From an uncultured Gammaproteobacteria bacterium (GTDB taxonomy: Bacteria > Pseudomonadota > Gammaproteobacteria > HTCC5015), in NCBI GenBank assembly GCA_964495705.1, contig CAZBWS010000007.1:688-64687 (forward strand): 64,000 nt of DNA. The letters are read 5' to 3'. Below the pieces are notes generated by a model that ran no database searches, was not told where the DNA came from, and saw only the letters and a list, made by a program, of their open reading frames with translations. Numbering within the stretch: the stretch's first letter is position 1; the number at the start of each line of letters is the position of its first letter. Position numbers and translations under genes: made by a program. Shown piece after piece: positions 1 through 15,496 of this stretch.

Positions 1-1632
1 CTCGCCTGCTTTGGCAAACGGCATTCCCGGAACGCGTACTACGCGATTACCTTGTTTATCTTGTATGTCATAACTATCACCTAGATGGCTGGCGAGTAAA
101 CTGGGGGCTCCAGCGGGATCCAGCCAAAAGCGTTCAAAGTTTCGTAGAGATAGAGGCATATTGCCTCGACGATAAACATATTCAACAATCTGTTCTTCAA
201 ATGTTTTGAATTTTTCATAGGAAGAAAAATTAACCGCTGTACTAATGAAGTTGTTTATACCTTGTTGTGTACTGCCTTGTAGTGCATGACAGCTATAGCA
301 ATGGGGTTCTACAACCTGTTTAAACAGCAATGCTGTACCTGTTGGGTTTTTCTTGGCGGGGTCTTGTACCCAAGGGGTATTATCTCTCCAACCTTCTGGG
401 ATAAAACTGCTAGTGCTCCTTCCCGACGTTGTACTACCTGAATAACGCCCTTGTGATACCTCAAATGCATAACTGGCATCCCAGCTCCCTTCTGTTGCAT
501 CCGTAGTATATGAACGACTGATAAAATCATTGATCATTCTAATCGCATCATGTAGCTCACCCTTTGAAAACCCACTATCACTTGAGTACTCAAAGCTTTC
601 TGCGTTTAATAAATTGAGTTCTGCGGAGCCCAGTGCTAATGAATTAAAAGACCCATCATTATTCAAGGGCAACACTCGACCGCCATGACATGAAAGACAA
701 ACACTGGGCACAGACTTGAGCCCTCTTCCGTCCATATCAATAACATTTCGTCGTAGTTGTTCCTCATCTGTGCTGCCGGGTAAAAAAGTATAAAACTTAA
801 CGATACTATCTTTGATATCACCGCCCTCTTTCACTGGGCTAAATTCTATGGCGTTTGTGCCGTCATGAAATTTTCTCGCGCGAAGTACTGCAGCATCTAA
901 ATTTAAACTTCCATAATTTGCAGAAGAATCACCAGTCGCTAGGTCGACTAAATAGTTGTCGACCATGAAGGCCATACTTCCATCGGTATTTCTATGCGCT
1001 GTAATATGGCGACCATAACCCAAATCGTTAACATCTCTAAACGTTGCGGATACAGTGGTACCGCTACCAGAGTTGAAGCCATTTTTTGTTTTCCATTTAG
1101 CAAGATTAGTACGTTCATCTGCAGGATCAATAGCGCGATAATAGGCCTTACTATAGTCTTCACCATCAACTTTACTGGTTGGGATAGTGATACGCCCAGC
1201 TGCTGTGTGGATTAGGTTTCCTGCGCGGTCTACGAGGCTTACCTGGCTTGGGACGGTGGCACTTAGGCTTAGCTCTATACCTCCAGGGTAATCAAGGTTG
1301 ATAGATTCACAGGGGCGTTGAAGCCCTGCACAGCTATTACCTGGGCCGTTAGATGTATTAATAGAGCCGGTACGCGTTTCGCTGTGGCCATCATCAAAGG
1401 TGATCTTTAATGTATAGCTGCCTGATTGGCCTGAACTATTCGTTGCTATAACAGCTGTATAGTCACTCGCACTTAAGCTGTGTTGTTTATTGACAAAGCT
1501 GGCAAACTCATTGGGTACACTGGTCGCTACTTCAGTGTTTTCTATTACTGGATCTGAATCACCACGACTACACGCCGAAATAGCCAGGATGATACTCAAT
1601 AAAAGGGTTAGTTGAACAAGTGAGTTACACAT
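1..1632 (-). CDS. Lipoprotein with two CxxCH c-type haem-binding motifs (N-terminal 544 codons; 3' end lies beyond the window edge)
   Basis: This ORF is absent from the track because it runs off the window. My manual minus-strand translation from ATG 1632 to base 1 is stop-free. It starts MCNSLVQLTLLLSIILAISAC (signal peptide plus lipobox Cys). CLSCH is at 685-699. CYSCH is at 286-300 and is followed about 45 aa later by GNMPL (Met 157-159), as in a class I cytochrome c fold. The start lies 2 nt after the stop of the upstream barrel gene. Confidence 0.75.
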   Translation of the reverse strand, partial: MCNSLVQLTLLLSIILAISACSRGDSDPVIENTEVATSVPNEFASFVNKQHSLSASDYTAVIATNSSGQSGSYTLKITFDDGHSETRTGSINTSNGPGNSCAGLQRPCESINLDYPGGIELSLSATVPSQVSLVDRAGNLIHTAAGRITIPTSKVDGEDYSKAYYRAIDPADERTNLAKWKTKNGFNSGSGTTVSATFRDVNDLGYGRHITAHRNTDGSMAFMVDNYLVDLATGDSSANYGSLNLDAAVLRARKFHDGTNAIEFSPVKEGGDIKDSIVKFYTFLPGSTDEEQLRRNVIDMDGRGLKSVPSVCLSCHGGRVLPLNNDGSFNSLALGSAELNLLNAESFEYSSDSGFSKGELHDAIRMINDFISRSYTTDATEGSWDASYAFEVSQGRYSGSTTSGRSTSSFIPEGWRDNTPWVQDPAKKNPTGTALLFKQVVEPHCYSCHALQGSTQQGINNFISTAVNFSSYEKFKTFEEQIVEYVYRRGNMPLSLRNFERFWLDPAGAPSLLASHLGDSYDIQDKQGNRVVRVPGMPFAKAGE

Positions 1633-1634
1633 GA

Positions 1635-2531
1635 TTAAAACCTTTTGGCAATGCTGAGGCGACTAAGTACACGCTGATAGTTATTATCACCTTTTGCCTC
1701 TACATCTGCCATCAATACAGATAAATCTACCGACATGGACGGGCTTATACGCTTGTTATATCCGAGTTTATAGGTATTCGTTTTTGCTGATAAGCGATAG
1801 GCTATCCATGTCCCCGGTAGTAGTTCACTAAAGGCACGGTCTGGTTCGGAAGCGTCTTGTGCATTGATGACTTTAAAAGGTTGGTTATTAGCAAAGCCAG
1901 TAGACACGCTGTCACCATCGATATAGCTATAGTTAAAGTAAATAAGGGATGAGCTATTTAAACTAAGATCGGCATTAGTGAAAAGCTTTGTGCGGTCCAA
2001 ATCAAAAACAGTTCCGTCAGAATCTGTTGATTGGTGTTCGGCACCTATACCTAAGGTTAATTTGTCAGTTATACGTTTTTTAATCTGTGCCCTTAGCTCA
2101 ATGGTTGTGCTGTCGCGCTGGTCAAACTCAAACTCTTCCGCCTTAAGGGTAGCACTGACTTGATATAAAGGTTGAGTAAAACCAAGCTTGGGTTGTATGC
2201 GATAAATAGCCGTCACACCTAAGCTACCGCTGTCCAGAGTAGTAAATTCTCTGTGCCCTTTAAATTTTGTAAAGCCAGCTATAGTGTATCCTTGTTTTAG
2301 TGTCAGCAAGCGGCTAAAAGCTAAACTGGCACTTAACTCTGCAGACTGATCTTCCGCTATATCACTGTTTTGTTCTGCTTGGCTAAGATTGTCATCACTA
2401 GTCAAACTGATTCGTGCATTAGTACTCCAAGGAGATTTATCTTGAACTGCCCAAGCGGTATTGCAAAGACTTATAGTTAAAATAAAACAGATGTGTGCAG
2501 TAGTTATTTTCAAGCTCATGTTCGAGGTCAT
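1635..2531 (-). CDS. Predicted outer-membrane beta-barrel protein, family unassigned
   Basis: 298 aa. The signal peptide ends ...CNTAWA/VQ. The sequence has alternating amphipathic strand-like segments with D/N/S/G-rich turns. The C-terminus ...LSIAKRF ends in Phe, like OMP beta-signals. The ATGA start/stop overlap with the adhesin gene (2528-2531) implies translational coupling. Confidence 0.6.
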   Translation of the reverse strand: MTSNMSLKITTAHICFILTISLCNTAWAVQDKSPWSTNARISLTSDDNLSQAEQNSDIAEDQSAELSASLAFSRLLTLKQGYTIAGFTKFKGHREFTTLDSGSLGVTAIYRIQPKLGFTQPLYQVSATLKAEEFEFDQRDSTTIELRAQIKKRITDKLTLGIGAEHQSTDSDGTVFDLDRTKLFTNADLSLNSSSLIYFNYSYIDGDSVSTGFANNQPFKVINAQDASEPDRAFSELLPGTWIAYRLSAKTNTYKLGYNKRISPSMSVDLSVLMADVEAKGDNNYQRVLSRLSIAKRF

Positions 2532-5500
2532 TTTTGTTTCACAAAAGGGAGTAAACCGATTATCAAAAATAGGCCGAGGAATATTATGTTAAAGGAGCTA
2601 GAGCCACCCGCTTTGACACTATCGTTAATCTCAGCGGTTTGTGCAATATTAGCTTCTATCAGGGAATCAGGTGTGTTGCTATTGGGTATTGATATACCTC
2701 CAGGGTCAACAATGACACCGTTTGCAAGGCCATCTGCATCATTTGGACCACCATCTTTAATAGTTAGCTCAAGACAATTAGCAAATGCTTGTAAGCCGTT
2801 AACGTAATCCTCATTCATAATGTCTGGGCAAACTCCCTCAATACTGTTGGCAGACTTGATACTGTTTTCACTGTCTTCAACAAAATTATTCCAGCCCGAG
2901 GCTAAATCAAACTTTCTATATACCGCATTGGCTGGCAAATTTATGGATAGCGGGATAACAATTTTTGCAGTGTTTTTGATTGAATTAAGCCCGTGTATTT
3001 CAAAGTCAAATAAACTACTTATTGGTGTATAAGCTGAGTCCGTAGCAACGCTATCGCTGGTCTGAGGGTCTTCAATACTCTTTTGAATATCTTCAATACT
3101 GACTTGTGCTCCAGAAGTTTGAGCTGCAATGGCACGACTGCCTAACCTCAAACTAAGTCCGGCCTCTGTTTGCATTGTGTTGATATAATTGTTTTCTAAG
3201 GGACTGACAAAAATACTTAATACATGGTTTTGAATAATAGGGTCTAAAAAGTCGGGCAGACCGTTTGAGTCACTATCGCTGGCTCCTTCAGTAACATCAT
3301 CGACTCCATCTCCATCGCTGTCAGCTGTTGTTAATGGCGTTAGTGTATCTTGCAATAATAGATTTAGGGTATGGGTTACGTTGTTGTTGCCATCGCTAAC
3401 GCTCACCGGAATGCTGTAAAGCCGACTCGCTAAGCTACTGGGGTCGAATACAACACTGCTGCTATTAACGGTGGGCATAGGGTTGAAGCTAATGTCGTCT
3501 ACCGCACTCCAGTCATAACTTAGAGTATCTCCATTTGCATCACTGGTGTTCGCGGTCAGCGTGACCATGCCTTGGTCTTTATAAATATAAATTGAATTGC
3601 TCCCCCCCTGGTTGACACTCAACGAGACTAGCGGTGGCACTTGTTGTTCGACGATAGTGATTATTTGTTGCTTTTGTACCCCAACAACAGCATTGGTTGC
3701 TGTATCTAAAGTGACAATGATTTCTTCTGTTCCCTCTATTAGTGAGTCACTGGCAATATTGATGGGTAGTGTGGCTGATAGCCCAGCGTTAATATCAATC
3801 TGGCCCATAAGTAAGTCGTGATCCAGAGGGGCACTGGCACTACCTGAAACTAGATAATTAATAGATACAGGATAAATCGCTGCTGGGCCACTCAGTTCTA
3901 CACTGAGGTTGAGTGTGCGCCCTTCCCCGCTGACTTGGCTGGCGGCCACGGAGACTATGGGAGCAATATTAACGATTTGATCTAGATTGGCTATATTGCC
4001 GGCTTGGTCTTGTGCAAACCAACTGACCGTATGCGAACCTGATAGGAACGGGCCTGTATCACTGTTAGTATTAATATTTATAACACCATCAAGAGCGTCT
4101 AGTGCACTTGCGGCTAAGTCGACAGTAGTTAACACAGCACTTGCGTCTATATTAATAGTATCAGCAGAAATGACCGGTGGCACCGTATCCGCATTGGGGT
4201 TTGAGCCTTGTGCCGCTTCTTCGGCATTAGTCAATCCATCACCATCGTTGTCTAAGCCAGCATCATTTGCATCAAAGGGGTCTAAGCCGTTGGCTAATTC
4301 AAAGCTATCTAGTATTGTATCGTTGTCATCATCTAGGTCACAAAGGTCTCCTTCAGTATCTAGATCGTTATTAGCTTGATCGGTATTGGCTGTATCAGGG
4401 CAGTTGTCTTCGTAGTCTGCTATGGTGTCTAGATCCCTGTCTGCGGTAGTCACGATTAATGTAATAGCTTCTAGTGCTGGAGTAGCGCTATCTTCCCTCC
4501 CGTCTTCAACTTGTACGCTAAAGTTATAGGTGTTTGCAGAGTCCTCCCCTGGCGTCCATGTTATTAAGCCGCCATTGAGTGTGACCTGCATATCAATAGG
4601 TGCCCCAATTAATGAGTACGCCAGTCCCGTACCTGTGTCGTCAGGGTCATTGACGATAACTTGATATTGATACTGTACAAGTTCAACAACGCTATTGGGC
4701 GAGATTGATGTGATTTGTGGTGCATCATTAACCGCTCTAATTGTTACCGACACCTCCGCCGAGGACTGGCTGCCAGCGGTATCTTGCATGATGTACTTGA
4801 ATTCAAATAATCCGTTTTCATTTAAAGCGGGGTTGAATAGCACTTGATTATTAATATCAGCAGAGTTTAGTGTCACTGTTCCCATGGCAGCAGTATAAGT
4901 GTTAGACGTACAGGCAATATCAGTTGTACCTTTGGCGCACAGGGCAATGATCCTTTTGGTATCTCCTGCATCAGGATCAGTGTCATTTGCCAGTACATCT
5001 AATAAATTATTACTCGAGTCTTCTAATACATCACTAAAGCTATTATCTGCTAAGGCAAGGGGCATATCATTTACATTGCTGATACTAATATTGACGATTC
5101 CATCCACGCTTTGCCCATCATTATCGGTAAGTGTATAAACAAAGCTGTCACTATGTATTTCACTTTCGTTGTGCGTATAGCTGAAGGTGCCATTGTTATT
5201 CAGTGTAAACGCCGCAGCTTGGTTGGGTGCTGTTTTAAGGCTAATCACAATGGGAGTATCTAATAATCCCGTATCATTGCTTGTCACATTGTTCGCACCG
5301 CCGACCAGTGCAGTCGCCGTGCCGCCTTCAGTAATAGTAATCGAGTCGTTCAATGCAGCTGGTGCACTATCACTAACTTTACTGATAACAATGCTAACGA
5401 GTCCATGGGCTGTTTGCCCATCATTATCAGTAATAGTGTAGCTAAAACTATCATTGAAATTTTCACTACCGTCGTGTTGATAGCTAAAAGTGCCATTGGG

Positions 5501-8221
5501 GTTTAAGGTGAAATTGCTGGCAAAATTGGGGTTGTTTAAAGGAGTAACAACAATCGGTGTATCCAATAAGCCTGCGTCATTATCAATCACACTAGTATTA
5601 CTGTTAGTTAGAACTGCAGTAGTGCCTCCCTCGGCCAGGCTGATGCTATCTGCTAAAGCGGATGGCGTTGAGTCACTGGTAGCTATGATGGATATACTGA
5701 CAAAAGCCGTATCAAGCTCCCCGTCTAAATCTTTAATTTGGTAACTAAAACTGTCGCTGAAATTCTCGCTGCCATTATGTTGATAACTGAAAGTACCGTC
5801 GTTAGTATTAAAGGAGAAGGCGCTTGCATGGACCGGGCTACTTAGCTGGGTAACCGTGATCGGTGTGTCTGTTAAACCCGTATCATTACTCAATACACTG
5901 CTGGCTCCACCTACTAAGCTTGTCGCCGTTGCCCCCTCATTTAGGCTAATGGATTCTATATTAGCGACAGGTGTTGAATCACTAACGGCTAACACAGTCG
6001 TAGACACTAAAGCCATAGACACGGCGCCATTGCTATCCTGCATTTTATATTTAAAGCTAAAGGGGCCGTTATAGTTACTAGTGGGGGTGAATAATACACG
6101 GTTGTTAATCGTGTTTGCACTGAGACTTAGTGCCCCGTTAGCATCACTATAAGTATCTGTAGTGCAGCTGGCCGCATTGGCCGTGGATGGTGCGCAAAGC
6201 GCAATAATTTGCTGAGTATCGCCCTCTCGACTCAGGTCGACGTCGGTATCATTACTCAGTACGTTAAAGCTGTTATTACTAGTGTCTTCGTTCACTGCCG
6301 CGGGGGTGTCCGCAACAGCAAGCGGCGGGTCATTTTGTGCTGTTACACTCAATGAGGCCGTTGCGGTTGACGTCAGGCCTGCCGCATCACGTATCTTATA
6401 TTTAAAGGCAAAGGGACCGTTATAATGGTTCGCAGGGGTAAATACCGCTTGGTTATTAAGCGTTGTTGAACTGAGCGTAACACTGCCTTGGCCGCTTATT
6501 GTGTAGTTTGTGTTTGTACAGGCTGCATCGGAGCTTGCCGTGGCACAGAAGGCTATAATTTCCTGGCTATCCCCTGCGTCACTATCAACATCATTGGATA
6601 ATACATCAAATGCATTGGCCCCAGAGTCTTCGACTACAGACCCAAGAGTGTCATTTATGGCGGTGGGTTGGTCATTAACATTGGTCGCACTAATATTGAC
6701 AGTGGCATTTGATGTTTGTCCATCATTATCAGTAAGACGGTAAGTGAAGCTGTCGCTGAGTGTGTCGCTGCCATTGTGCTGATAACTAAAGCTACCGTTG
6801 CTATTTAAGTTAAAAGTTGAGGCTTGGCTGGGGGGCGAAAGTACCGACACTAGAACCGGAGTGTCAAGTAACCCCGTATCATTATCAGTTACATTATTAC
6901 TGCCACCGACTAATGTGATGGCAGTGCCGCCCTCAGCGAGAGCGATCGAATCTGTATTAGCAATCGGCGTACTGTCGCTCACCTTGGAGACAGCGATAGA
7001 TACTGTTGCGTTACTATTTTGACCGTCTAAATCAGTAACTTTGTAGGTGAAATTGTCCGTAAAATTTTCGCTACCATTGTGCGTATAACTGAATGTGCCA
7101 TCGCTATTAAGCGTAAAGCTAGCTGCATGGATAGGCGGCGATACAACACTGACTGTGACCGGGGTATCCGTTAAGCCGCCATCATTGCTTAAGACAGAGC
7201 TTGCTCCACCTACGAGTGTCGTAATTGTTGCCCCTTCTACTACTGCAATATTGTCAGCTGCTGGGTTGGGGCTAGAGTCGCTAACTGCAGACACTGTTAC
7301 CGTAATCTCAGCGTTTGAGGTTGAGCCCGCTGAGTCTTGCATGCGGTATTCAAAAGTAAAACTACCATTGTAATTGTTAGCGGGAGTATAAATGATGTTA
7401 TCACCAGATTTACTCAGAGTACCTGGTACGCCTAAGCTAAAACCCGATGAAGTATTAGTACAGCTAGTATTGGCGGTGCCTTGCAAACAATAGCCCACCA
7501 GGGTTTTAGTGTCGCCATCCCCCCCGGCAGTGTCATTACTTAAGGGTGAGATGATTTTCGTACCTCCATCTTCAGTGTGTGTGATAGATGGGTCATTAGC
7601 GGCCGTGGGTGCAGTATTTACCGTTACCGTATTCGAAGTACATCTAACAGTGCCGTCATCAGCTTCGGTACCTAGGTCGTTCACCGGGTTACCACAGGCA
7701 TAGAAGGTATAATTACCAACCGTGCTTGGCGTGGTCCATGTATAGTTCCAAATATAGCTATTTGAACTATTGGTCTTCTTGCTTGAATGGACTATTTCTT
7801 TGCCAATTGATGCATCACTGGTACCGCCGTTATCAGCAGTGGTTTTTACTTTGGTGTTCTGTCCACCTTGGGCGATAAGTGTTCCCGAGGTTACTGACAA
7901 ACCAAAACCCGCGCCAGAAGCCTGTACGCCTACAGAGCCCCGTGTTAGGCGAAAGCTTAAATCTGTATAAGAACTGCTATTGTTGAGTCTAGGGAAGCTG
8001 CTGCTTCCATTTTTCATGATAGCCGCAGAGTAGCCCGTATGAGTCGTTGTAAAATGACAGGCTGCACAGCTCGACCCACTGCCAAAAGCTGCTGATGGGT
8101 TGTTAGAGTGTTCAAACTGCCCGGAAGCACTTGCCCAGACGGTTTGATTCACTATGGCAATAAGTAGAAAAGCTGAAAAGAGTATTTTAGGCATAAGTAC
8201 TACTTGAATGGCTGTCTTCAT
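2528..8221 (-). CDS. Giant (1897 aa) secreted cell-surface repeat protein / adhesin with GlyGly-CTERM-like sorting tail
   Basis: It has a signal peptide; the start could also be Met10 at 8194. The N-terminal module carries CAACH (8054-8068). About nine tandem ~100-aa Ig/cadherin-like (VCBS-type) repeats follow, in two alternating kinds (...ND.GLLDTP...NGTFSY.H.GSE..DSF.Y and ...VLSND.D.D.GD...FTP..NYNGPF.FKY). Further modules are a He_PIG/cadherin-like module and Asp-rich thrombospondin type-3-like Ca-binding repeats (DNCPDTANTDQ, DDDNDT, DNDGDGL). HYR-like, Calx-beta-like and PKD-like modules follow. Near the C-terminus there is a DGGPNDADGLANGVIVDPGG motif and then the sorting tail. Confidence 0.9.
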   Translation of the reverse strand: MKTAIQVVLMPKILFSAFLLIAIVNQTVWASASGQFEHSNNPSAAFGSGSSCAACHFTTTHTGYSAAIMKNGSSSFPRLNNSSSYTDLSFRLTRGSVGVQASGAGFGLSVTSGTLIAQGGQNTKVKTTADNGGTSDASIGKEIVHSSKKTNSSNSYIWNYTWTTPSTVGNYTFYACGNPVNDLGTEADDGTVRCTSNTVTVNTAPTAANDPSITHTEDGGTKIISPLSNDTAGGDGDTKTLVGYCLQGTANTSCTNTSSGFSLGVPGTLSKSGDNIIYTPANNYNGSFTFEYRMQDSAGSTSNAEITVTVSAVSDSSPNPAADNIAVVEGATITTLVGGASSVLSNDGGLTDTPVTVSVVSPPIHAASFTLNSDGTFSYTHNGSENFTDNFTYKVTDLDGQNSNATVSIAVSKVSDSTPIANTDSIALAEGGTAITLVGGSNNVTDNDTGLLDTPVLVSVLSPPSQASTFNLNSNGSFSYQHNGSDTLSDSFTYRLTDNDGQTSNATVNISATNVNDQPTAINDTLGSVVEDSGANAFDVLSNDVDSDAGDSQEIIAFCATASSDAACTNTNYTISGQGSVTLSSTTLNNQAVFTPANHYNGPFAFKYKIRDAAGLTSTATASLSVTAQNDPPLAVADTPAAVNEDTSNNSFNVLSNDTDVDLSREGDTQQIIALCAPSTANAASCTTDTYSDANGALSLSANTINNRVLFTPTSNYNGPFSFKYKMQDSNGAVSMALVSTTVLAVSDSTPVANIESISLNEGATATSLVGGASSVLSNDTGLTDTPITVTQLSSPVHASAFSFNTNDGTFSYQHNGSENFSDSFSYQIKDLDGELDTAFVSISIIATSDSTPSALADSISLAEGGTTAVLTNSNTSVIDNDAGLLDTPIVVTPLNNPNFASNFTLNPNGTFSYQHDGSENFNDSFSYTITDNDGQTAHGLVSIVISKVSDSAPAALNDSITITEGGTATALVGGANNVTSNDTGLLDTPIVISLKTAPNQAAAFTLNNNGTFSYTHNESEIHSDSFVYTLTDNDGQSVDGIVNISISNVNDMPLALADNSFSDVLEDSSNNLLDVLANDTDPDAGDTKRIIALCAKGTTDIACTSNTYTAAMGTVTLNSADINNQVLFNPALNENGLFEFKYIMQDTAGSQSSAEVSVTIRAVNDAPQITSISPNSVVELVQYQYQVIVNDPDDTGTGLAYSLIGAPIDMQVTLNGGLITWTPGEDSANTYNFSVQVEDGREDSATPALEAITLIVTTADRDLDTIADYEDNCPDTANTDQANNDLDTEGDLCDLDDDNDTILDSFELANGLDPFDANDAGLDNDGDGLTNAEEAAQGSNPNADTVPPVISADTINIDASAVLTTVDLAASALDALDGVININTNSDTGPFLSGSHTVSWFAQDQAGNIANLDQIVNIAPIVSVAASQVSGEGRTLNLSVELSGPAAIYPVSINYLVSGSASAPLDHDLLMGQIDINAGLSATLPINIASDSLIEGTEEIIVTLDTATNAVVGVQKQQIITIVEQQVPPLVSLSVNQGGSNSIYIYKDQGMVTLTANTSDANGDTLSYDWSAVDDISFNPMPTVNSSSVVFDPSSLASRLYSIPVSVSDGNNNVTHTLNLLLQDTLTPLTTADSDGDGVDDVTEGASDSDSNGLPDFLDPIIQNHVLSIFVSPLENNYINTMQTEAGLSLRLGSRAIAAQTSGAQVSIEDIQKSIEDPQTSDSVATDSAYTPISSLFDFEIHGLNSIKNTAKIVIPLSINLPANAVYRKFDLASGWNNFVEDSENSIKSANSIEGVCPDIMNEDYVNGLQAFANCLELTIKDGGPNDADGLANGVIVDPGGISIPNSNTPDSLIEANIAQTAEINDSVKAGGSSSFNIIFLGLFLIIGLLPFVKQK
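2531..2614 (-). other. GlyGly-CTERM-like C-terminal sorting signal (putative rhombosortase substrate tail)
   Basis: The last 28 aa are KAGGSSSFNIIFLGLFLIIGLLPFVKQK. This gives Gly-Gly, then a Ser-rich stretch, then a hydrophobic helix, then a basic end. That layout matches the GlyGly-CTERM domain recognised by rhombosortase in Vibrio and Shewanella-type bacteria. Confidence 0.6.
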
Positions 8222-8254
8222 ATTATGTTAGTCTAGCTCAATAAAAGTGAGATT

Positions 8255-8270
8255 TGTGACTGTTTTCACG
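8255..8270. promoter_or_regulatory. CRP/Vfr-like binding site in the divergent adhesin / FecR-like promoter region
   Basis: TGTGA-CTGTTT-TCACG matches the TGTGA-N6-TCACA consensus at 9 of 10 half-site positions. It lies in the 105-bp gap between the divergent starts at 8221 and 8327. A TATAAT hexamer at 8292-8297 precedes the plus-strand gene. Confidence 0.4.
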
Positions 8271-8326
8271 AATTTGACTGCAATCATGATCTATAATATA
8301 GCCAATTAATACAAAAGACGATAAAA

Positions 8327-8869
8327 GTGGATGAAAATACTTTATTAGCACGGCGCCAGTTTTTAAAGCAGTCGGCAGCTGCGGGTCTTATATCCCTTGG
8401 AACACCAACGGCGTGGACTGACAGTGTCTACGCTATGGGTAAGATACCCAGAAAACTTAACCCGCCAAAATCTATCTATGAGCTTAAAGGCCGCGTTTTA
8501 GTCAATGGCCAGCTTGCAAATGCCCGCTCTGTCATTTCAGCGAATTCAACAGTTGAAACGGGTAGTAATAGTTTTGTGGTTTTTGTTGTGGGTGCAGGCG
8601 CTCATATTCTGCGTGAAAACAGTAAGGTTAGTTTTACGGGGAGTGAATTTTTAGAACAAGGCTTGCGCTTGCTCACTGGTAAGCTTATGTCAGTCTTTGG
8701 GCACCGTGATACTGCGCGAGACCGACTGAAAATGCATACAACAACAGCCACTATTGGTATACATGGCACGGGTGTATATGCTGAGTCATACGCAGATCGC
8801 AGCATCGTAGGACGAAGGCCTCCCTTTTCCAGTATCAATGATTACAATCAATCTATCATTGATTATTAA
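8327..8869 (+). CDS. Tat-signal FecR-domain-like periplasmic protein, short paralog (internal ~64-aa deletion relative to its neighbour)
   Basis: GTG start. It has a twin-arginine motif ARRQFLKQSAAAGL. FecR-like strands are present (IYELKGRVLVNG...VETGSNSFVVFVVGAGAHILRENSKVSF...TATIGIHGTGVY). It aligns along its whole length with the 8898-9632 product, except that the segment between ...SYADRS and IVGRRPP is missing. Confidence 0.6.
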   Translation: MDENTLLARRQFLKQSAAAGLISLGTPTAWTDSVYAMGKIPRKLNPPKSIYELKGRVLVNGQLANARSVISANSTVETGSNSFVVFVVGAGAHILRENSKVSFTGSEFLEQGLRLLTGKLMSVFGHRDTARDRLKMHTTTATIGIHGTGVYAESYADRSIVGRRPPFSSINDYNQSIIDY

Positions 8870-8897: not shown

Positions 8898-9632
8898 ATG
8901 AATAAAGTAGAGCTAGAAGAATCAAGGCGTGAGTTTTTACTCAAATCCATTAGTGCAGGGACATTGGCTATTTCGGCATCCAGTGGTTTATTAGTCCCTG
9001 CTCCTGCTCAATCTATGGGAAAAATCCCCGAAAAGCTCATCCCTGGTAAGTCTATATATGATATACGAGGAACAGTTTTAGTGGATGGTGTAAAAGCGAA
9101 TGAAGAAACCTTAATTAAAGCCTCTTCTAAGGTAGAAACTAAAAGCGGCAGTCATGTTGTTTTCGTCATTGGCTCAGATGCACATGTACTACGAGAAAAT
9201 AGTACTGTGCAATTCAAAGGCGCTGAATTTTTTGAGGAAGGGCTGCGTTTAGTCACCGGCAAGTTACTATCGGTATTTGGTGCTCGCCCTAAGCATCAAC
9301 AACATACATTACGTACATCCACGGCAACCATTGGTATACGCGGAACAGGGGTTTATACCGAGTCCTACGAGGATGCTAGTTATCTATGTACATGTTACGG
9401 GACGGTCGATCTATATGCGGATAATGATGACTATAGTGCAGAACGCATTGTTTCTAAGCAGCACGAAAATCCTCGTTATATTTTAGCTGATGGTAGCAAG
9501 GGAAAACTTATTGAAGACGCACCGATTAAGAATCACTCGGTGGAAGAGCTTATTCTTGTCGAATCTTTGGTGGGTCGCAAGCCGCCAGTATCTTTTGTAA
9601 GTGATTACAGCCCGCCTCGGGATGATTACTAA
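8898..9632 (+). CDS. Tat-signal FecR-domain-like periplasmic protein, full-length paralog
   Basis: It has a twin-arginine motif SRREFLLKS and then an A-rich h-region. FecR-like segments are IYDIRGTVLVDG...VETKSGSHVVFVIGSDAHVLRENSTVQF...TATIGIRGTGVY. An extra CTCYG-containing segment is absent from the upstream paralog. Both paralogs end in ...DY. Confidence 0.65.
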   Translation: MNKVELEESRREFLLKSISAGTLAISASSGLLVPAPAQSMGKIPEKLIPGKSIYDIRGTVLVDGVKANEETLIKASSKVETKSGSHVVFVIGSDAHVLRENSTVQFKGAEFFEEGLRLVTGKLLSVFGARPKHQQHTLRTSTATIGIRGTGVYTESYEDASYLCTCYGTVDLYADNDDYSAERIVSKQHENPRYILADGSKGKLIEDAPIKNHSVEELILVESLVGRKPPVSFVSDYSPPRDDY

Positions 9633-9689: not shown

Positions 9690-10235
9690 TTAGCCAAGTT
9701 GCGCGTCAATGACTTTCTGAGCATCTTCAATTAAAGGGTGCTTGGGATGTGCCTTAATAAAGCTTCGCATTAATTCAATACTCTGTGCTTTTTCACCTTG
9801 CCCGCCGCTCACTAAAGCCTTTGTAAACAGTGCGTTGGGGTACAGTTGAGTACCTTTGTACTGTTGTATAAAGCTGTCTAAATTTTTCCCAGCTGCTTGT
9901 AAGTTGCCTTGCTCAATAGATTTTTGTGCTTTGTTAAATAATTTTAAAGACTCAACAAAAACAGGGTCTTCAGATTGGTCCCCCTTCCAATAAGGCTCTA
10001 GGATGCTCTCTGTCGTTTCATTGCCACGAATACCTGCAGTAGTCACAGCACGGTACTTAGTATTTTTAGCTGTACTTGGATTCAATGCACGCAACTTCCC
10101 CCAGACCTGGTAGAAAATGCCTTTCAATACATTACTGGACTTATCTTCTTGTATGATTGCATTGTCTTCAGCAAAGCTGAATTGCGGTACGCTGATAGCT
10201 AAAGCCACTGACGCTACTATTACTTTAATATGCAT
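9690..10235 (-). CDS. Small secreted protein with C-terminal TPR/BamD-like helical region (hypothetical)
   Basis: 181 aa. Signal peptide MHIKVIVASVALAISVPQFSFA. The C-terminal half is helical-repeat-like (LFNKAQKSIEQGNLQAAGKNLDSFIQQYKGTQLYPNALF...). It lies 82 bp downstream of, and on the same strand as, the 1694-aa gene. Confidence 0.5.
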   Translation of the reverse strand: MHIKVIVASVALAISVPQFSFAEDNAIIQEDKSSNVLKGIFYQVWGKLRALNPSTAKNTKYRAVTTAGIRGNETTESILEPYWKGDQSEDPVFVESLKLFNKAQKSIEQGNLQAAGKNLDSFIQQYKGTQLYPNALFTKALVSGGQGEKAQSIELMRSFIKAHPKHPLIEDAQKVIDAQLG

Positions 10236-10317
10236 GAAACGGCCCTTTGTTTGTTCTGCATTGTTTTTATCAGTTTAACGGTATTTATGAAGAAAAACCT
10301 TGAATTCAATCTCATTT

Positions 10318-13300
10318 TTAGTTGACCAACAAGCTGCCTAAGCTTGCATAGCGCTGGCTTAAGTCAGGGTGTTGTTGCAAAGCTTGTTGATACTTATTTC
10401 GAGCAGAGCTCAATTCGCCACCACGATAGTAGGCAATCGACATGTTTATTTTAATACCGCCATCCTCTGGGTCTAAATCCTCTGCTTTTTGATAGGCATC
10501 GACAGCTTGGGCAAAGTCTCCAGAATTCAGATAGATGTTGCCCTTAGTATTATAGGCTTCTGCGCTACGTGGATTTAATATTAGCAGTTCAGAGAGTGTG
10601 TCCAGTGCGCGTTGTACTAAGCCATATTTTGCGAAAACAATAGCCATTTGGGTTTTGGCCACTTGGTTTTCAGGGTCGCTTTCTAACAGCAGTACATAGG
10701 GTTGGATGATACGATCTATGCCCTGCTCTATTAAACGATCAATTTCTATATTCACTAAACGTTGTACCGCCAGCTTAGGTGGCAATGCAAGATCATTGCC
10801 ACTGTGCTTTAAAGTGACTGGCTGGAAGTCTTTCCAAGCGTCTTTTAAAGCAATAGCGTTGAGCTTATTCTCGCCTAAATATTTATGATATTTGCGTGCA
10901 CCTTCGGCCCATGCCTCTGCAAAACTCGTATTAATCATCGTTGCTTCGATAGGTACCCAGACAAAGCCATCTCGAATGACTACGAGACTTTCCTGTTGAC
11001 TAATGACTGTACGATCTCTTTCAGGGATGCCTGTATTAAACATCATTAACAAATGTCCTGGCACATCTAATAATGCAGTCGCGATGCCTAAGTTTTCTAA
11101 GCTAGTACTCAACAACACAGAAAGATCGTCACAGTCACCGCTTTTGAGCTTTAAGGTTTCACGGGCAAATTGAACATAATCCACGGTATCTTCACCTAGC
11201 TCGGCAAAGGGATTGCTGGGGTCCACTACATAGCGAATACCCAAGGCATTAAAACTGTTAAATAGTGTCATTGCAGACACTAAGCTTTCGCTGAGTGGAC
11301 CATGTTCAGGCTTGTATTCGTTAATAGCCTGACGCACAAAGCCTCGTAACAAGTCGTCTTTGGGAGTGACGAATGAGCCAGCCATATGAGGTTGAGACCA
11401 AGTGATAGCATTTTTGCCGTGTATCGTCATGGGGCGAGTAATACTGATGCTGTCCTTCTGACCGTTACGCACAAAATTGAGTTTGATCTCAACTTGCACA
11501 CCAGTGTCTTCATCAATATCTAAGACTTGGTTGTTAAATGCTGCATTTAAAGGCAGTTCTATACTTTGCCCTCCTGAAATCATATTAATCGGCGTTGTCG
11601 TGGGGAAGTCCATATAGCCCTTTACATTAAAGCTTAAGCTCAGGTTGCCATAGCTCGTTGCAGCAGCGTTGCGCACCACAATGCTGCCAACGGGTTTATT
11701 AGAATACTGTTTGTAAGCAGCTGAAAAAATGGGGTGTATATTAAAATTTTCAAATACAAGCTGAGGTTGATTAAAGCGAAATTCTTCAGATTTCTTTTTT
11801 TCTGCGTAGGCGGCATTAACTAAGTTTTTATTTTCTACGGAGGGGGTAATCTCTGCGGCTTTTTCATAGCTTTCTATAGCGGCTTCATACAGCCTACGCT
11901 GTATATAGAGGTCGCCCTGGGTAACAAAGGCCGTAGCTAACTTAGGGTTTAATATTAAGGCCTGCTCAATTGCAGCCAGTGACTGATCATATAAACTGTT
12001 GTGTAAATACAGTGTCGCCAAACGAACGTGTAAAGTTGCATCAGTTTTATCGATAGCAATAGCTTTGCGAATACTTTCCAGTGCATCGCCAGTCTTTCCT
12101 TGTTGTTCTTGAATTTTCGATTTGGTTAATAAGGGCTTAATATTTTTAGGTTGTATGCGGATAGCCTGCTGGGCGTGCTTTTCAGCTTGTTTAAGAGCAC
12201 CAGAATGAGCTTGCGCTTCGGCCATCGCAAGGTGTGTCGAAAAGTCATTAGGCTTAATTTGTAATGCAGTTGTTAACGCGCTGACGGCATCATCATTGTT
12301 ATTATTAATAAAGGCCGCACGGCCATAGGCAAGTTGAGCGTCATGACTTTGAGGATTGTTGGTAGCGGCAGTTTGTAGTGTTTGTAAAGCCCTCTCCTTC
12401 TCTTCTCGCTGAGAGTATAAAGCCGCTAGCGCAATCCATGCAGGAACATTGTTAGCATCCGCACGGCTGGACTTTCCCAGTGATAATAGTGCAGTTCCCT
12501 CATCTTTATTTGCCAGAGCAACAACACCGAGTAAGTAATTCCCCTCAGATAGCGTATCCACATTGCCTGCCAGAGCTATAGCAATATTTCGGACTTCTTC
12601 GTATTTCTCTTCTAATAGATAAACATTCGCCAAGCCCAATTGGGCTTGAGTATTTTCACCTTGCAGGCTTATAGCGTGTTGATACTTAGTCGTTGCTAAT
12701 TCGTATTCTTGAAACTGCACATAGATATCACCCGCTTCAGACCATAGTAAAGCCGCATCTGTACGTTGCTTATCAGTCAAGCCTTCTACATCAATACTAC
12801 CTGCTAAAGCTTTTTCTAGTTGTGCAAAACCTTGTTCTTTAGCTCCGACTTTTAAATATGCCCTGCCTAATAGCAGCTGGCTGTGGATATGCTCAGGCTG
12901 TAACTTAATTGCCGCCTCTAAGCAGTCTACTGCGCCAATTGCATCATTCATTTCAAGGCTTAGCTGGCCACAATATAGCTGTGTTTCTGCGTCGTTAGGG
13001 GCTTGTTTAATCAGTTGTTGAACTAAGGCGAGAGCTTCAATGAATTGCTGGTCTTCGTGTAAAGTCTCGACCTGCAATTTAAGCCCTTCTTCTCTAAAGC
13101 CGTCAACATTAGCGAGAGACTTAAATTGGCTTAAAGCCGCTTCACTTTGTCCCATCTTTTTATAGCTTAAACCTAGATACTTTATGGCTGCAGCATGTTG
13201 CGGGTTTTGCCCAATGGCTATACTGAGTATTTTCTCGGCTATATCGTACTCAGCATTTTTATAACCCTGATAAGCTTCTAAGAAGATATCTTCAACACTA

Positions 13301-15345
13301 GCAGATGCAATACCTTGTTTGTCAAAACCACTGATAGCTGAAACACGGTATTTTGCATAGGTTTTGTTAGGCTTTTGTGAAATATTGAGCTGTGTTGATT
13401 GCACGGTGTCGATAAGTTCATATGTATCACTGGCAACGTTTAAGGCCCCAAAAACACGGTAGCCCTTGATATGCTGCCCTGCAACCTTAGACCAGTCTAA
13501 ATGAGCGGCGTTGACATCACCGGTTACCTTTAGACCTGAAACCTTTGCAGGCACCTTAATATAGTGATAGTTAAGCATGCCGCCTTTTTTGGCATCAAAA
13601 ATAGCGATGCTGGTTTTTTGTTTAGGCGTTAAGGTTAAAGATGTTGCGTTTTGTAATGCGGAGCTTTCTTTTTTTGAATAGTTAGCAAAGCGGAATATAC
13701 GTTGTTTTCCTTTATAGATATGTACACTTTGCTTATTGGCATTGGTGCCGGCTAGCACGTAAAGGTTATCGTCAACATCGACTGCTAAATCAATAAAGTG
13801 TGTGAATGCATCAGGGGATTTCAAGGGTGCACCAATATCATACATAAACTGATTATTAGCCGAAAACACTACGATTTTTTTCTTTTCATTATCAGCAACA
13901 AAAATTTCGCCTACGCTATTAACCGCTACAGCAGTAGGCTTTATTAGCAAATTGGGGCTGTCGCCGGGTCTAGGTAGCTTGCCTAGAAAAACGCCTTTTT
14001 GTGTAAAAAACTGTACTCTTGGTAGGCCAGATTCCGCCACATAGATACGCTTGCCAGTTAAAAATAGATCTTTAGCGCCTTTTAACTCCCCCTCTTTTTT
14101 TCCTCGTGCGCCAAATTGAGCAATACGGGTTCCTGCGTGATTAAAAACAAATACCCCTTTACTGCCCAGTACCGCAATTTTTTGGTCGTCAAAGGAGGCT
14201 TGTATAGGGTTCTTAAGCTTACTATCTAGGGTTTTAATAACTTTTCCATTGTTATCAAGAATATTCACCGCATTTTTCTTGTTGTCTAAACACAGCAGTT
14301 GGCCATTATTTAATTCATAGGCATTACTGCATTGCAGTTTAGCTAAGCCTGTAAATCGAATGCTTGCATAGGGTGCGGGATCTTCTTTTCCTAGGCTTTC
14401 TGAGGGGAGTTGGTATACGTCTATTTTTTTGTTGCCACTATCTGCGACGGCAATTTTAAAATTATCAGATACCGCCAGTGCTGTGGTATTAATATATTGC
14501 CCAGGCCCTTTGCCTGAGCTGCCAAATACGCGCTTTACTTTGTTGCTGTGCCAGTCGTATTGTAAGATTTTTCCAGAGATTTTATCCGCAATAAAGAGCT
14601 GCCCTTGAGCGCTTACAGCAATAGCGCTCAGTTTTATCTTTTTTGCCCCAGTAGTCGCGTGCAACTGTGCCGCTTTAATTGTTTTCAGGCGCTTCCCTGC
14701 CTGGGTGAAAATATGTATAGAGCCCATTTCTGCGCTATCTAAGACGTAAACACGCTCCTGCTTGTCGAGTTTTACCTGCTTAGGTATTTTTAGGTTTCTT
14801 GCGGGGTTGGTATTGTCTCTACCAATACGGTACAGAAATACACCATCAAGGCTAAATACTGATATATGACCTGCCTCATCAGCCAGATAAATACGTTCAT
14901 TATGCGAATAAGCTAAACTGCTCGCAGATTTGAGTAGCCCTGCACCTGCACCACTGGCACCAAATTTATTACTAACCTCGCCTGCCGAGTCAAGGATAAT
15001 GATTGTGTCATCTCCACTGTTAGTAACGGCTAAAGCACCATCAGGTAAAGCATCGATGCCGCTGACTTTTCTTGACGAAAATGCTTTAGCTTTACCTGCA
15101 ATCACTACTTTGTTCGCGATACCTTCAGAAAATGTCGTTACAGCTCCCAAGCTTGAGTCTGCTGCGACTAAACTACCATCATTAAGAAATTCAAGATCAG
15201 AGATATATTTGATAGCCGCTTTAGCATTGGTAGAGTTATAGCTTTGTAATAACTCAACATCCGCAGCAGGAGAAATACCAGAGTAAGTCAGCAGTGAAAC
15301 TATTAAGCAATTCAGTAGTCGTAATTTAGGTGATTTTAAACCCAT
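10318..15345 (-). CDS. Giant secreted NHL-repeat beta-propeller / FN3 / TPR / transglutaminase-like (SirB1-type) / TPR protein
   Basis: The track ORF is 10318-15402 (1694 aa). I prefer Met20 at 15345 because it is followed directly by a signal-like sequence, MGLKSPKLRLLNCLIVSLLTYSGISPAA. Many NHL-type blades are present (e.g. FGASGAGAGLLKSASSLAYSHNERIYLADEAGHISVF; FGSSGKGPGQYINTTALAVSDNFKIAVADSGNKKIDVY). One FN3-like module is present (VSGLKVTGDVNAAHLDWSKV...YRVSAI). A TPR array of roughly 600 aa follows. The Cys/His core is SGDCDDLSVLL...VPGHLLMMF...WVPIEAT. The protein ends with C-terminal TPRs. Confidence 0.85.
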   Translation of the reverse strand: MGLKSPKLRLLNCLIVSLLTYSGISPAADVELLQSYNSTNAKAAIKYISDLEFLNDGSLVAADSSLGAVTTFSEGIANKVVIAGKAKAFSSRKVSGIDALPDGALAVTNSGDDTIIILDSAGEVSNKFGASGAGAGLLKSASSLAYSHNERIYLADEAGHISVFSLDGVFLYRIGRDNTNPARNLKIPKQVKLDKQERVYVLDSAEMGSIHIFTQAGKRLKTIKAAQLHATTGAKKIKLSAIAVSAQGQLFIADKISGKILQYDWHSNKVKRVFGSSGKGPGQYINTTALAVSDNFKIAVADSGNKKIDVYQLPSESLGKEDPAPYASIRFTGLAKLQCSNAYELNNGQLLCLDNKKNAVNILDNNGKVIKTLDSKLKNPIQASFDDQKIAVLGSKGVFVFNHAGTRIAQFGARGKKEGELKGAKDLFLTGKRIYVAESGLPRVQFFTQKGVFLGKLPRPGDSPNLLIKPTAVAVNSVGEIFVADNEKKKIVVFSANNQFMYDIGAPLKSPDAFTHFIDLAVDVDDNLYVLAGTNANKQSVHIYKGKQRIFRFANYSKKESSALQNATSLTLTPKQKTSIAIFDAKKGGMLNYHYIKVPAKVSGLKVTGDVNAAHLDWSKVAGQHIKGYRVFGALNVASDTYELIDTVQSTQLNISQKPNKTYAKYRVSAISGFDKQGIASASVEDIFLEAYQGYKNAEYDIAEKILSIAIGQNPQHAAAIKYLGLSYKKMGQSEAALSQFKSLANVDGFREEGLKLQVETLHEDQQFIEALALVQQLIKQAPNDAETQLYCGQLSLEMNDAIGAVDCLEAAIKLQPEHIHSQLLLGRAYLKVGAKEQGFAQLEKALAGSIDVEGLTDKQRTDAALLWSEAGDIYVQFQEYELATTKYQHAISLQGENTQAQLGLANVYLLEEKYEEVRNIAIALAGNVDTLSEGNYLLGVVALANKDEGTALLSLGKSSRADANNVPAWIALAALYSQREEKERALQTLQTAATNNPQSHDAQLAYGRAAFINNNNDDAVSALTTALQIKPNDFSTHLAMAEAQAHSGALKQAEKHAQQAIRIQPKNIKPLLTKSKIQEQQGKTGDALESIRKAIAIDKTDATLHVRLATLYLHNSLYDQSLAAIEQALILNPKLATAFVTQGDLYIQRRLYEAAIESYEKAAEITPSVENKNLVNAAYAEKKKSEEFRFNQPQLVFENFNIHPIFSAAYKQYSNKPVGSIVVRNAAATSYGNLSLSFNVKGYMDFPTTTPINMISGGQSIELPLNAAFNNQVLDIDEDTGVQVEIKLNFVRNGQKDSISITRPMTIHGKNAITWSQPHMAGSFVTPKDDLLRGFVRQAINEYKPEHGPLSESLVSAMTLFNSFNALGIRYVVDPSNPFAELGEDTVDYVQFARETLKLKSGDCDDLSVLLSTSLENLGIATALLDVPGHLLMMFNTGIPERDRTVISQQESLVVIRDGFVWVPIEATMINTSFAEAWAEGARKYHKYLGENKLNAIALKDAWKDFQPVTLKHSGNDLALPPKLAVQRLVNIEIDRLIEQGIDRIIQPYVLLLESDPENQVAKTQMAIVFAKYGLVQRALDTLSELLILNPRSAEAYNTKGNIYLNSGDFAQAVDAYQKAEDLDPEDGGIKINMSIAYYRGGELSSARNKYQQALQQHPDLSQRYASLGSLLVN

Positions 15346-15496
15346 GGCGGCCTCAGCAGATTTACAATTGATACTGCGCTTATTATGCTGATCAATAGCC
15401 ATAAATTACAAGAGGCTAACACTGATAAATTCACTGTCTTTTCGCGCAATTTACGTTACATTTGTGTACGGTCTTTACTACATATAAGAAACCATA

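Follow-up and report, generated by a model that had tools for sequence, protein, structure and literature searches.

At the left end of a 64,000-nucleotide stretch of DNA from an uncultured gammaproteobacterium of the lineage HTCC5015 (assembly GCA_964495705.1, contig CAZBWS010000007.1, positions 688 to 64,687; the whole stretch is called the window here), three genes packed head to tail on the minus strand code for a giant repeat-rich adhesin, an outer-membrane beta-barrel and a lipoprotein that has the sequence hallmarks of a c-type cytochrome. Equivalent cassettes recur widely in Gammaproteobacteria, and their adhesins open with a haem-type motif, usually CxxCH, that is retained when the domain around it is exchanged for an unrelated one, which argues that haem is what selection has preserved at this position.

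The three genes and their products

The genes, their junctions and the diagnostic sites of the lipoprotein are as follows.

8221..2528, minus strand: adhesin gene, 1897 amino acids, from the open reading frame (ORF) and its translation
2531..1635, minus strand: outer-membrane beta-barrel gene, 298 amino acids, with signal peptide at residues 1-28 and Phe as final residue
1632..1, minus strand: gene for a trihaem c-type cytochrome lipoprotein, truncated by the window edge after codon 544 of 734
2528-2531, minus strand: ATGA overlap in which the adhesin stop and barrel start share bases, read in the sequence
1633-1634, minus strand: spacer of two nucleotides (TC) between the barrel stop TAA and the lipoprotein ATG, read in the sequence
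1570..1572, minus strand: lipobox cysteine C21 (LAISA-C), invariant in alignment A1
685..699, minus strand: CLSCH, residues 312-316, haem motif 1; C312, C315 and H316 invariant in A1
286..300, minus strand: CYSCH, residues 445-449, haem motif 2; C445, C448 and H449 invariant in A1
154..159, minus strand: M492-P493, likely axial Met ligand of haem 2, a role suggested by class-I cytochrome c architecture; invariant in A1

The original prediction, made from the letters and their ORFs, had taken the three genes for a translationally coupled unit, and the overlap and the gap on which this view depended can both be read directly. It had also described the middle protein as a barrel that lacks a haem motif and the adhesin as bearing a single CAACH soon after its signal peptide; structure modelling agrees with the former and the adhesin does contain exactly one CxxCH, at residues 52-56. 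Its account of the lipoprotein needs correction in one respect. CLSCH is present, as is CYSCH followed by GNMPL, but the count of two motifs was wrong, since recovery of the 3' end adds a third.

The complete lipoprotein, read from other metagenome assemblies, has 734 residues; eight of these assemblies (L001-L008), located by exact match to the barrel protein, carry the locus in identical form. The third motif is CTLCH (residues 649-653), within a domain that lies past the window edge. Across 25 diverse homologues of 35-67% identity (alignment A1) there is no variation in the lipobox cysteine, the three CxxCH motifs, M492-P493 or H705, and none of 20,000 shuffles of the sequence contained three CxxCH motifs. 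Pfam Cytochrom_C matches residues 647-729 (23.6 against a cut-off of 21.3), while Cytochrome_CBB3 matches 19 of the 25 homologues. Conserved CxxCH motifs, an export signal and a profile match together identify the lipoprotein as a c-type cytochrome, the attachment of haem itself being predicted. Long stretches outside the haem motifs are also conserved in A1 (YYxAxDP, FRDxxDLGYGR, NAIEFS and DxDGRGxK). An AlphaFold2 model (predicted local distance difference test score, pLDDT, 82) begins at the N-terminus with a beta-sandwich, continues through an alpha/beta domain, helical haem regions and a PKD domain, and ends in a cytochrome domain; in a Foldseek search with the whole model the PKD domain alone had PDB relatives, and the conserved region 150-530 has no PDB relative by sequence profile. 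Homologues form 160 clusters, mostly of about 730 residues, and where their sources name them the labels are hypothetical or 'mono/diheme cytochrome c family protein'. The nearest species-representative cytochrome to that of the window is 42% identical.

The barrel protein has about 270 mature residues, no CxxCH and no periplasmic domain. Its AlphaFold2 model, built from 12 sequences, is a closed beta-barrel of about 12-14 strands (pLDDT 73; predicted template-modelling score, pTM, 0.69), and Foldseek matched it to outer-membrane barrels only, at generic template-modelling (TM) scores of 0.4-0.57. These matches include the beta-domains of the autotransporters EstA, NalP, AIDA-I, EspP and Hbp, as well as OmpG, the COG4313 channel, FapF and CymA, the best scores belonging to the solute channels COG4313 (0.55-0.57) and CymA (0.55). 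No Pfam or NCBIfam family matches above threshold, a sequence-profile search of the PDB was empty even at E 10, and 27 barrel homologues gave only scattered sub-threshold matches to assorted Pfam barrel families; because the profile searches yielded nothing firmer, we place the barrel in no family.

The adhesin consists, in order, of a signal peptide, a haem-motif domain, immunoglobulin (Ig)- and cadherin-like repeats, thrombospondin type-3 (TSP3) calcium-binding repeats, a conserved C-terminal domain and a tail that resembles a sorting signal.

8132..8221, minus strand: Sec signal peptide, residues 1-30, cut between VWA and SAS, the site judged by eye
7649..8161, minus strand: choice-of-anchor V domain, residues 21-191 (the 'type B' N-terminal domain discussed below); NCBIfam NF041895, 61.2 bits against a cut-off of 42
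8054-8068, minus strand: CAACH, residues 52-56, sole CxxCH of the adhesin and candidate covalent haem site
7787..7789, minus strand: His145 in E-I-V-H, candidate distal haem ligand, a suggested role; E(L/I)(T/V)H is at least 90% conserved in alignment A4
4472..7624, minus strand: stalk of tandem Big_9, cadherin-like and tandem-95 repeats, about residues 200-1250
4193..4447, minus strand: thrombospondin type-3-like calcium-binding repeats, residues 1259-1343; TSP3_bac, 27.5 bits against a cut-off of 25, and TSP_3
2618..3013, minus strand: conserved membrane-proximal C-terminal domain, residues 1737-1868 (LFDFEIHG onward); choice-of-anchor U NF041766, 54.8 bits against a cut-off of 32
2531..2617, minus strand: sorting-signal-like tail (KAGGSSSF, hydrophobic helix, KQK), from the translation

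The repeats are recognised by Pfam Big_9 (3e-95, over eleven stretches), Cadherin_5, Cadherin_4 and TSP3_bac and by the NCBIfam tandem-95 repeat (1.6e-76), and the pattern FDFEIHG...DGG.ND.DG...DPGG of the C-terminal domain is kept in the orthologues compared. The tail of the window adhesin stays under all NCBIfam sorting-signal cut-offs, with no match to TIGR03501 and LPXTG_anchor as the best score (14.2 against 15.9), and no rhombosortase or sortase-like gene was seen among the ORFs scanned in the window, which is 64 kb of the genome. The orthologous tail of Litoribacillus (L009) passes GlyGly-CTERM TIGR03501 (22.6 against 15.5).

Conservation of the cassette and of the haem motif

When one genome per species was scanned with the cytochrome alignment, 209 stretches that code for relatives emerged, and the best 79 loci were fetched with 10-kb flanks. 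Carriers are nearly all Gammaproteobacteria, a few metagenome-assembled genomes being labelled otherwise, and include Litoribacillus, Litoribrevibacter, Permianibacter, Moraxellaceae, Colwellia, Psychrosphaera, Alcanivoracaceae, Oleispira, Bermanella, Nevskia and the Olavius Gamma 3 symbiont. A hidden Markov model finds the barrel in 70 of the 79 loci, and in each of these the barrel gene directly precedes that of the cytochrome. In 60 loci a giant ORF of about 950-3000 residues that ends at the barrel was called, and in three more the giant protein is recognisable from upstream fragments or mis-called ORFs, which brings the loci with giant protein, barrel and cytochrome in this order to about 63. 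Co-occurrence of the trio outside this genome, which the original prediction had put forward as a test, is thus widespread; the idea of a fixed unit of three genes has to be relaxed, in that only the barrel and cytochrome are invariant and the adhesin is absent from about five loci. The invariant core of the cassette is the barrel with the cytochrome, and the adhesin, whose gene directly precedes the core in about 90% of loci, is the usual third member.

The cytochrome has no barrel match in nine loci, namely two on short contigs, six with longer cytochromes (820-870 residues) and a lone gene in Paraglaciecola. The six longer cytochromes stand alone between bioH/bioC and rpoH, which suggests that the cytochrome can function without partners. 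They form a divergent subgroup (L060, L061, L064, L072, L083 and L087, at about 9800-12400 in the long loci) flanked by rpoH-ftsX/E/Y, with neither barrel nor adhesin. Elsewhere the cassette or its parts are multiplied: L069 has two cytochromes (2631-4724 and 9839-11908), L041 and L051 lie on the same contig 34 kb apart, and L048 and L074 have extra barrels after the cytochrome. The presence of two cassettes or extra barrel paralogues in some genomes suggests duplication and diversification.

Particular weight attaches to the motif at the N-terminus of the adhesin. CAACH sits about 22 residues past the predicted signal-peptide cut of a protein that has 16 Cys and 20 His among its 1897 residues, and 20,000 shuffles of that composition gave a mean of 0.0011 CxxCH motifs; shuffling and conservation together rule out a chance origin for the CxxCH motifs of the cassette. 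Among giant proteins whose N-terminus is intact and in which a motif was called, 51 of 51 have a single CxxCH about 20-30 residues past the signal peptide. There are variants with wider spacing, CTVGGCH (Cx4CH) in L055 and CTNGCH in L082, and in L080 the N-terminal piece, beyond a masked stretch, carries CTACH; the giant proteins outside the motif count are entries cut by contig ends. Conservation in orthologues, which had likewise been named as a test, is therefore found on both sides of the cassette: the motifs of the lipoprotein do not vary, and no complete orthologous giant protein lacks one at its N-terminus.

This motif is carried by either of two domains. In most loci it lies in a domain, here type A, whose sequence begins TVTYDGTDGV and in which C, C, H, M-P and W do not vary. 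The profile of this domain matches cytochrome c6 along the entire domain (E 1e-3) and also FoxE (E 6e-4), c-551 and c-552, and by these matches it is a class-I-like cytochrome c. It is also homologous to the haem-2 domain of the lipoprotein (hhalign probability 92%, E 5.5e-7). In the window and about 12 loci the motif lies instead in the choice-of-anchor V domain, type B, which is predicted to be beta-rich, shows no variation at the second Cys or the His and retains the first Cys in at least 90% of sequences (alignment A4), and has a conserved E(L/I)TH about 90 residues after the haem motif. In the PDB its sequence matches nothing but the sites at which multihaem cytochromes attach haem. The alignment of types A and B is confined to the motif (hhalign probability 24%). 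Since two unrelated domains occupy the same position and keep the same motif, haem is likely to be the selected feature, and we regard this exchange as the strongest argument for it.

An exhaustive phmmer search gave 66 representative relatives of the choice-of-anchor V family, about 60 of them with a complete N-terminus, and CxxCH is present in 46 of the latter. Outside the cassette (P0153-P0218) the domain occurs in proteins of 134-1731 residues with diverse C-terminal ends; judged by eye, these include sorting-signal-like tails, ends like those of type IX secretion system substrates and dockerin-like ends, and P0157 and P0159 are fused to barrels.

Within the cassette, too, adhesin and barrel can be continuous. 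A single ORF that runs from haem motif through repeats and tail into barrel is found in L040, L044, L049, L053 (Oleispira/Bermanella), L057, L048 and L074. Four fusions keep the tail helix, a basic loop and the barrel signal peptide with its AxA site, an arrangement that forms a hairpin, and because helix and signal peptide are both retained they are probably cut by signal peptidase. Three Oleispira fusions have one hydrophobic segment and then AQA followed by E. The ORFs at L040:5368-10008, L044:1850-9997, L049:4930-9621 and L053:4816-9486 show one hydrophobic segment and a site of this AQA-E type before the barrel. If the hydrophobic segment of the Oleispira/Bermanella fusions stops transfer in the inner membrane, the barrel would stay in the cytoplasm. 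As read from these ORFs, the fusions tie adhesin to barrel functionally, and they are no proof that the parts stay joined.

Possible functions and known systems

We hold, with moderate confidence, that the cassette is a conserved outer-membrane and surface system of Gammaproteobacteria that would act as a redox-active adhesion module, with a cytochrome at the tip of the adhesin and a membrane-proximal cytochrome as its partner, a function that we infer from the architecture of the proteins. All three would pass the inner membrane unfolded via Sec, and haem would be attached in the periplasm. The lipoprotein would be lipidated and, with Ser at position +2 as in the window, sent to the outer membrane, where it would be paired with the barrel; the adhesin would be exported and tethered by its C-terminus, so that the haem domain would be held at the outer tip of a stalk that measures tens of nanometres. 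The tip cytochrome could serve as a tethered redox or binding head that touches an external surface or oxidant, and could swing inward for electron exchange with the membrane-proximal trihaem lipoprotein, which contains a related domain. The barrel might give the lipoprotein access to the outside or might anchor the base of the adhesin, and a pair of neighbouring genes coding for FecR-like and CHASE2 proteins, described in the next section, might link an envelope signal to expression.

Most of what is known of surface cytochromes comes from specialists in metal respiration or metal oxidation, in which they occur as multihaem wires inside large porins. The cassette is conserved in about 70 species-level genomes that include oil degraders (Alcanivoracaceae, Oleispira), Moraxellaceae, Colwellia, Psychrosphaera and symbionts of gutless worms and tubeworms, and it would equip a giant adhesin with one haem at its free end and pair this adhesin with a small barrel and a trihaem lipoprotein. 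The barrel and lipoprotein are in no curated family (the lipoprotein reaches the generic cytochrome c cut-off only), and retention of the motif through a swap to an unrelated fold speaks, with a directness unusual for comparative evidence, for the importance of the cofactor. Should the haem be real, adhesion would be coupled to extracellular redox chemistry or sensing in a way that has not been studied, and culturable carriers (Litoribacillus peritrichatus JCM 17551, Litoribrevibacter euphylliae KCTC 52438, Alcanivorax sp. 1008, Colwellia sp. 75C3, Psychrosphaera algicola G1-22 and Permianibacter sp. IMCC34836) allow direct testing.

Several observations weigh against this reading. The barrel is too narrow for a cytochrome, and no electron path across the outer membrane is evident. 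Barrel and cytochrome occur without an adjacent adhesin in about five loci (L041, L043, L065, L077 and L082), and since the cytochrome is found alone in about seven others, its function is not strictly dependent on the adhesin; moreover, the cytochrome was the bait with which the loci were gathered, so that pairs of adhesin and barrel without it could not be counted. The location of the lipoprotein may vary by lineage, because several homologues have Asp at the +2 position at which the window protein has Ser, and in Escherichia coli Asp at +2 directs retention in the inner membrane. No CHASE2 cyclase was found in the window. In the wider choice-of-anchor V family the motif is also spaced as Cx4CH (nine proteins), Cx3CH (two), CxCH (two), Cx5CH (one) and Cx6CH (one). 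Cx4CH and Cx3CH spacings bind haem in some cytochromes c3, whereas the CxCH members at least probably bind no haem in the usual way. Because the cysteine spacing varies to this extent (Cx1-6CH), haem on the window adhesin is likely rather than certain, and for the cassette proteins as a whole haem is a prediction from sequence.

A bolder version of the redox-active module, which we offer only tentatively and think improbable as a whole, would make these proteins 'cytochromes on a leash': giant gammaproteobacterial adhesins would hold a single c-type haem domain tens of nanometres out on a calcium-stiffened stalk, where it would shuttle electrons or report redox state between outside surfaces, oxidants or neighbour cells and a station of barrel and trihaem lipoprotein, under FecR-like/CHASE2 cyclic-nucleotide control. 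If it exists, such a device would make redox contact outside the cell by a route other than multihaem conduits, nanowires or soluble shuttles.

The operon might alternatively house two systems, the barrel being a small-solute channel that feeds a periplasmic lipoprotein oxidoreductase, while the adhesin is merely co-regulated and brings the cell to the source of the substrate, with its CxxCH serving as a disulfide or metal site. We consider this unlikely. In its favour, barrel and cytochrome are the invariant pair and the adhesin is the member that can be missing, the barrel model scores best against solute channels, the large conserved non-haem domain of the lipoprotein (FRDxxDLGYGR, NAIEFS, DxDGRGxK) looks enzyme-like, stand-alone homologues of the cytochrome exist, and cysteine spacing varies among choice-of-anchor V proteins. 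What it accommodates poorly is the adhesin itself, in that a haem-type motif opens every complete giant protein of the cassette and in most loci resides on a class-I cytochrome c-like domain, complete with M-P, that is homologous to a domain of the lipoprotein. Two unrelated domains at the same position are hard to explain unless haem is required, and adhesin-barrel fusions have appeared in at least two lineages.

It is similarly doubtful, in our estimation, that the cassette works like an autotransporter, or in a type V-like manner, with the barrel as dedicated translocator or anchor of the adhesin C-terminus, encoded apart from the adhesin in most genomes and joined to it in some, and the cytochrome as an accessory. 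The in-frame fusions, to which the fused P0157 and P0159 can be added, do have an N-terminal passenger and C-terminal barrel in the order of type Va proteins, the autotransporter beta-domains of EstA, NalP, AIDA-I, EspP and Hbp are among the top Foldseek matches together with FapF, 12-14 strands is the size of polypeptide translocators, and in the window the adhesin stop overlaps the barrel start. Against these likenesses, the model reaches TM-scores of only 0.37-0.47 with autotransporter barrels, and Pfam Autotransporter gives no match; in four fusions the retained tail helix and AxA-type barrel signal peptide mean that signal peptidase would probably separate the parts; a barrel so narrow would not pass a folded holo-cytochrome domain; the GlyGly-CTERM score of the Litoribacillus tail points to rhombosortase and type II secretion; and the barrel is found with the cytochrome where the adhesin is lacking. 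Compared directly with type Va autotransporters and FapF, the cassette shares the size class of the barrel, the order of passenger and barrel in the fusions and the top fold-search matches, and differs in the want of a sequence-family match, in fold similarity of a generic kind (TM 0.4-0.5), in a passenger with a sorting-signal-like transmembrane tail and in a barrel that always travels with a cytochrome lipoprotein. Assignment to type Va was rejected on the separate genes, the missing family match and the low fold scores.

Very improbable, finally, is a miniature porin-cytochrome conduit that passes electrons through the outer membrane as MtrCAB, PioAB or Cyc2 do, for although the triad of surface haem protein, barrel and lipoprotein cytochrome recalls Mtr and Pcc clusters and the haem domains have weak sequence matches to FoxE, the 12-14 strands and about 270 mature residues of the barrel compare with 26 strands in MtrB (6r2q_B, query-based TM-score, TMq, 0.32), three haem motifs in 734 residues and one in 1897 provide no membrane-spanning chain of haems, the adhesin haem would lie at the end opposite to the membrane anchor, and carriers are mostly aerobic marine and freshwater heterotrophs and symbionts. 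The original prediction had seen only a loose resemblance to such conduits, a caution that the numbers justify (12-14 strands against 20-26, and haem motifs of one plus three against tens). With MtrCAB of Shewanella, the Pcc complex OmaB-OmbB-OmcB of Geobacter and PioAB/MtoAB the cassette has in common a tight operon that combines an outer-membrane barrel with c-type cytochromes, one a lipoprotein and one targeted to the cell surface; here, unlike there, the strands are about half as many, the haem motifs number one plus three rather than 10-30, no cytochrome could thread the barrel, and the surface partner is a repeat adhesin of 1900 residues with its haem at the distal end. MtrB_PioB gave no match above threshold, and a single one of the 27 barrel homologues matched it below threshold (E 0.006). 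An MtrB/PioB-type conduit was rejected for want of a spanning cytochrome of eight or more haems, the lipoprotein having three CxxCH in 734 residues. As neither the size of the barrel nor the number of haems suffices, we conclude from the sequences and the barrel model that the cassette is not a porin-cytochrome conduit.

Other comparisons are partial. The fused monohaem cytochrome-porins of the Cyc2 type, which belong to iron oxidisers, likewise have a single CxxCH near the mature N-terminus, and the fused variants of the cassette end, as they do, in a beta-barrel; in the cassette more than 1200 residues of Ig/cadherin repeats and a hydrophobic tail come between haem motif and barrel, and in the window adhesin and barrel are separate genes. 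The adhesin resembles GlyGly-CTERM/rhombosortase proteins and Haft's choice-of-anchor proteins in its anchor V and anchor U matches and in a tail laid out as Gly-rich, hydrophobic and basic segments, and differs from the GlyGly-CTERM proteins in that its tail reaches no sorting-signal cut-off. A relationship to Slam (DUF560/SlipAM) was rejected: one of 27 homologues matches (E 0.039), the barrel has no periplasmic domain, and the adjacent lipoprotein gene is a mere resemblance. Literature searches found no account linking choice-of-anchor or GlyGly-CTERM proteins with a barrel-cytochrome pair and no description of the cassette, in keeping with the suggestion in the original prediction that no system of this composition had been described.

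Flanking genes and the rest of the window

Upstream of the adhesin gene, and divergently oriented to it, lie two related genes in tandem.

8222..8326: divergent intergenic region of 105 base pairs between the adhesin operon and the FecR-like genes, presumed promoter region
8327..8869, plus strand: internally deleted FecR-like paralogue, 180 amino acids, with RR signal
8898..9632, plus strand: FecR-like protein, 244 amino acids, with twin-arginine signal SRREFL; divergent, accessory cassette member with homologues in 45 of the 79 loci

A promoter scan found no consensus promoter in 8222..8326, and the locus as a whole has fewer promoter-like sites than shuffled sequence; a terminator scan of the locus found nothing convincing between the three cassette genes. 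These scans are compatible with a single transcript and otherwise uninformative.

The two FecR-like copies score 21.6 (the 244-residue protein) and 22.2 bits against Pfam FecR, just below the cut-off of 24, and the 180-residue copy is without the middle and C-terminal part of the 244-residue copy, including a CTCYG stretch. All-against-all clustering of ORFs from the 79 loci found only two further conserved flanking families, the FecR-like proteins (45 loci) and a CHASE2 adenylate/guanylate cyclase (29 loci). A FecR-domain protein paired with a CHASE2 sensor has been reported in a biofilm-regulating operon of Burkholderia (PMC5192318), where, as in relatives of the cassette, the gene for a periplasmic FecR-like protein lies beside that for a CHASE2 membrane sensor and near surface or biofilm genes. 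The output differs, being an adenylate/guanylate cyclase in relatives of the cassette and a histidine kinase in Burkholderia (PMC5192318). In addition, the cassette FecR-like protein has a twin-arginine translocation (Tat) signal and no LysM domain, and the window has two FecR-like copies and no CHASE2 gene.

Beyond these lie a small secreted protein of 181 residues that resembles tetratricopeptide-repeat (TPR) proteins and BamD (9690-10235, minus strand) and a 1694-residue protein of NHL-propeller and TPR units (10318-15402, minus strand). Both were rejected as parts of the system, the TPR protein recurring only in contigs of its own lineage and clustering having found neither family in related loci.

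On the other side of the cassette, downstream of the lipoprotein gene, the assemblies differ, so that the operon ends with that gene. Directly 3' of it, just past the left edge of the window, one assembly has an inovirus-like prophage (L001:13271-19018; Zot, DUF2523, Phage_DNA_bind, Phage_CRI), and another has a phage integrase (L005:4074-5315), so that this spot varies between strains.

A putative phosphoesterase at 19623-20354 (minus strand), 10 kb from the cassette, has a sub-threshold match to CpdA (3',5'-cyclic-AMP phosphodiesterase); it is noted only since relatives of the cassette carry a cyclase, and no link is shown. Nearer to the cassette, at 15497-19371 on the plus strand, is a separate cluster of three genes for a MoxR-type AAA ATPase, an unassigned protein of 323 residues and a TgpA-like transglutaminase. 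The rest of the window is ordinary chromosome, comprising, besides this MoxR/TgpA cluster, ribA, kdsB, lpxK, msbA, comEC, lolC/E, mfd, eno, pyrG and dnaE.

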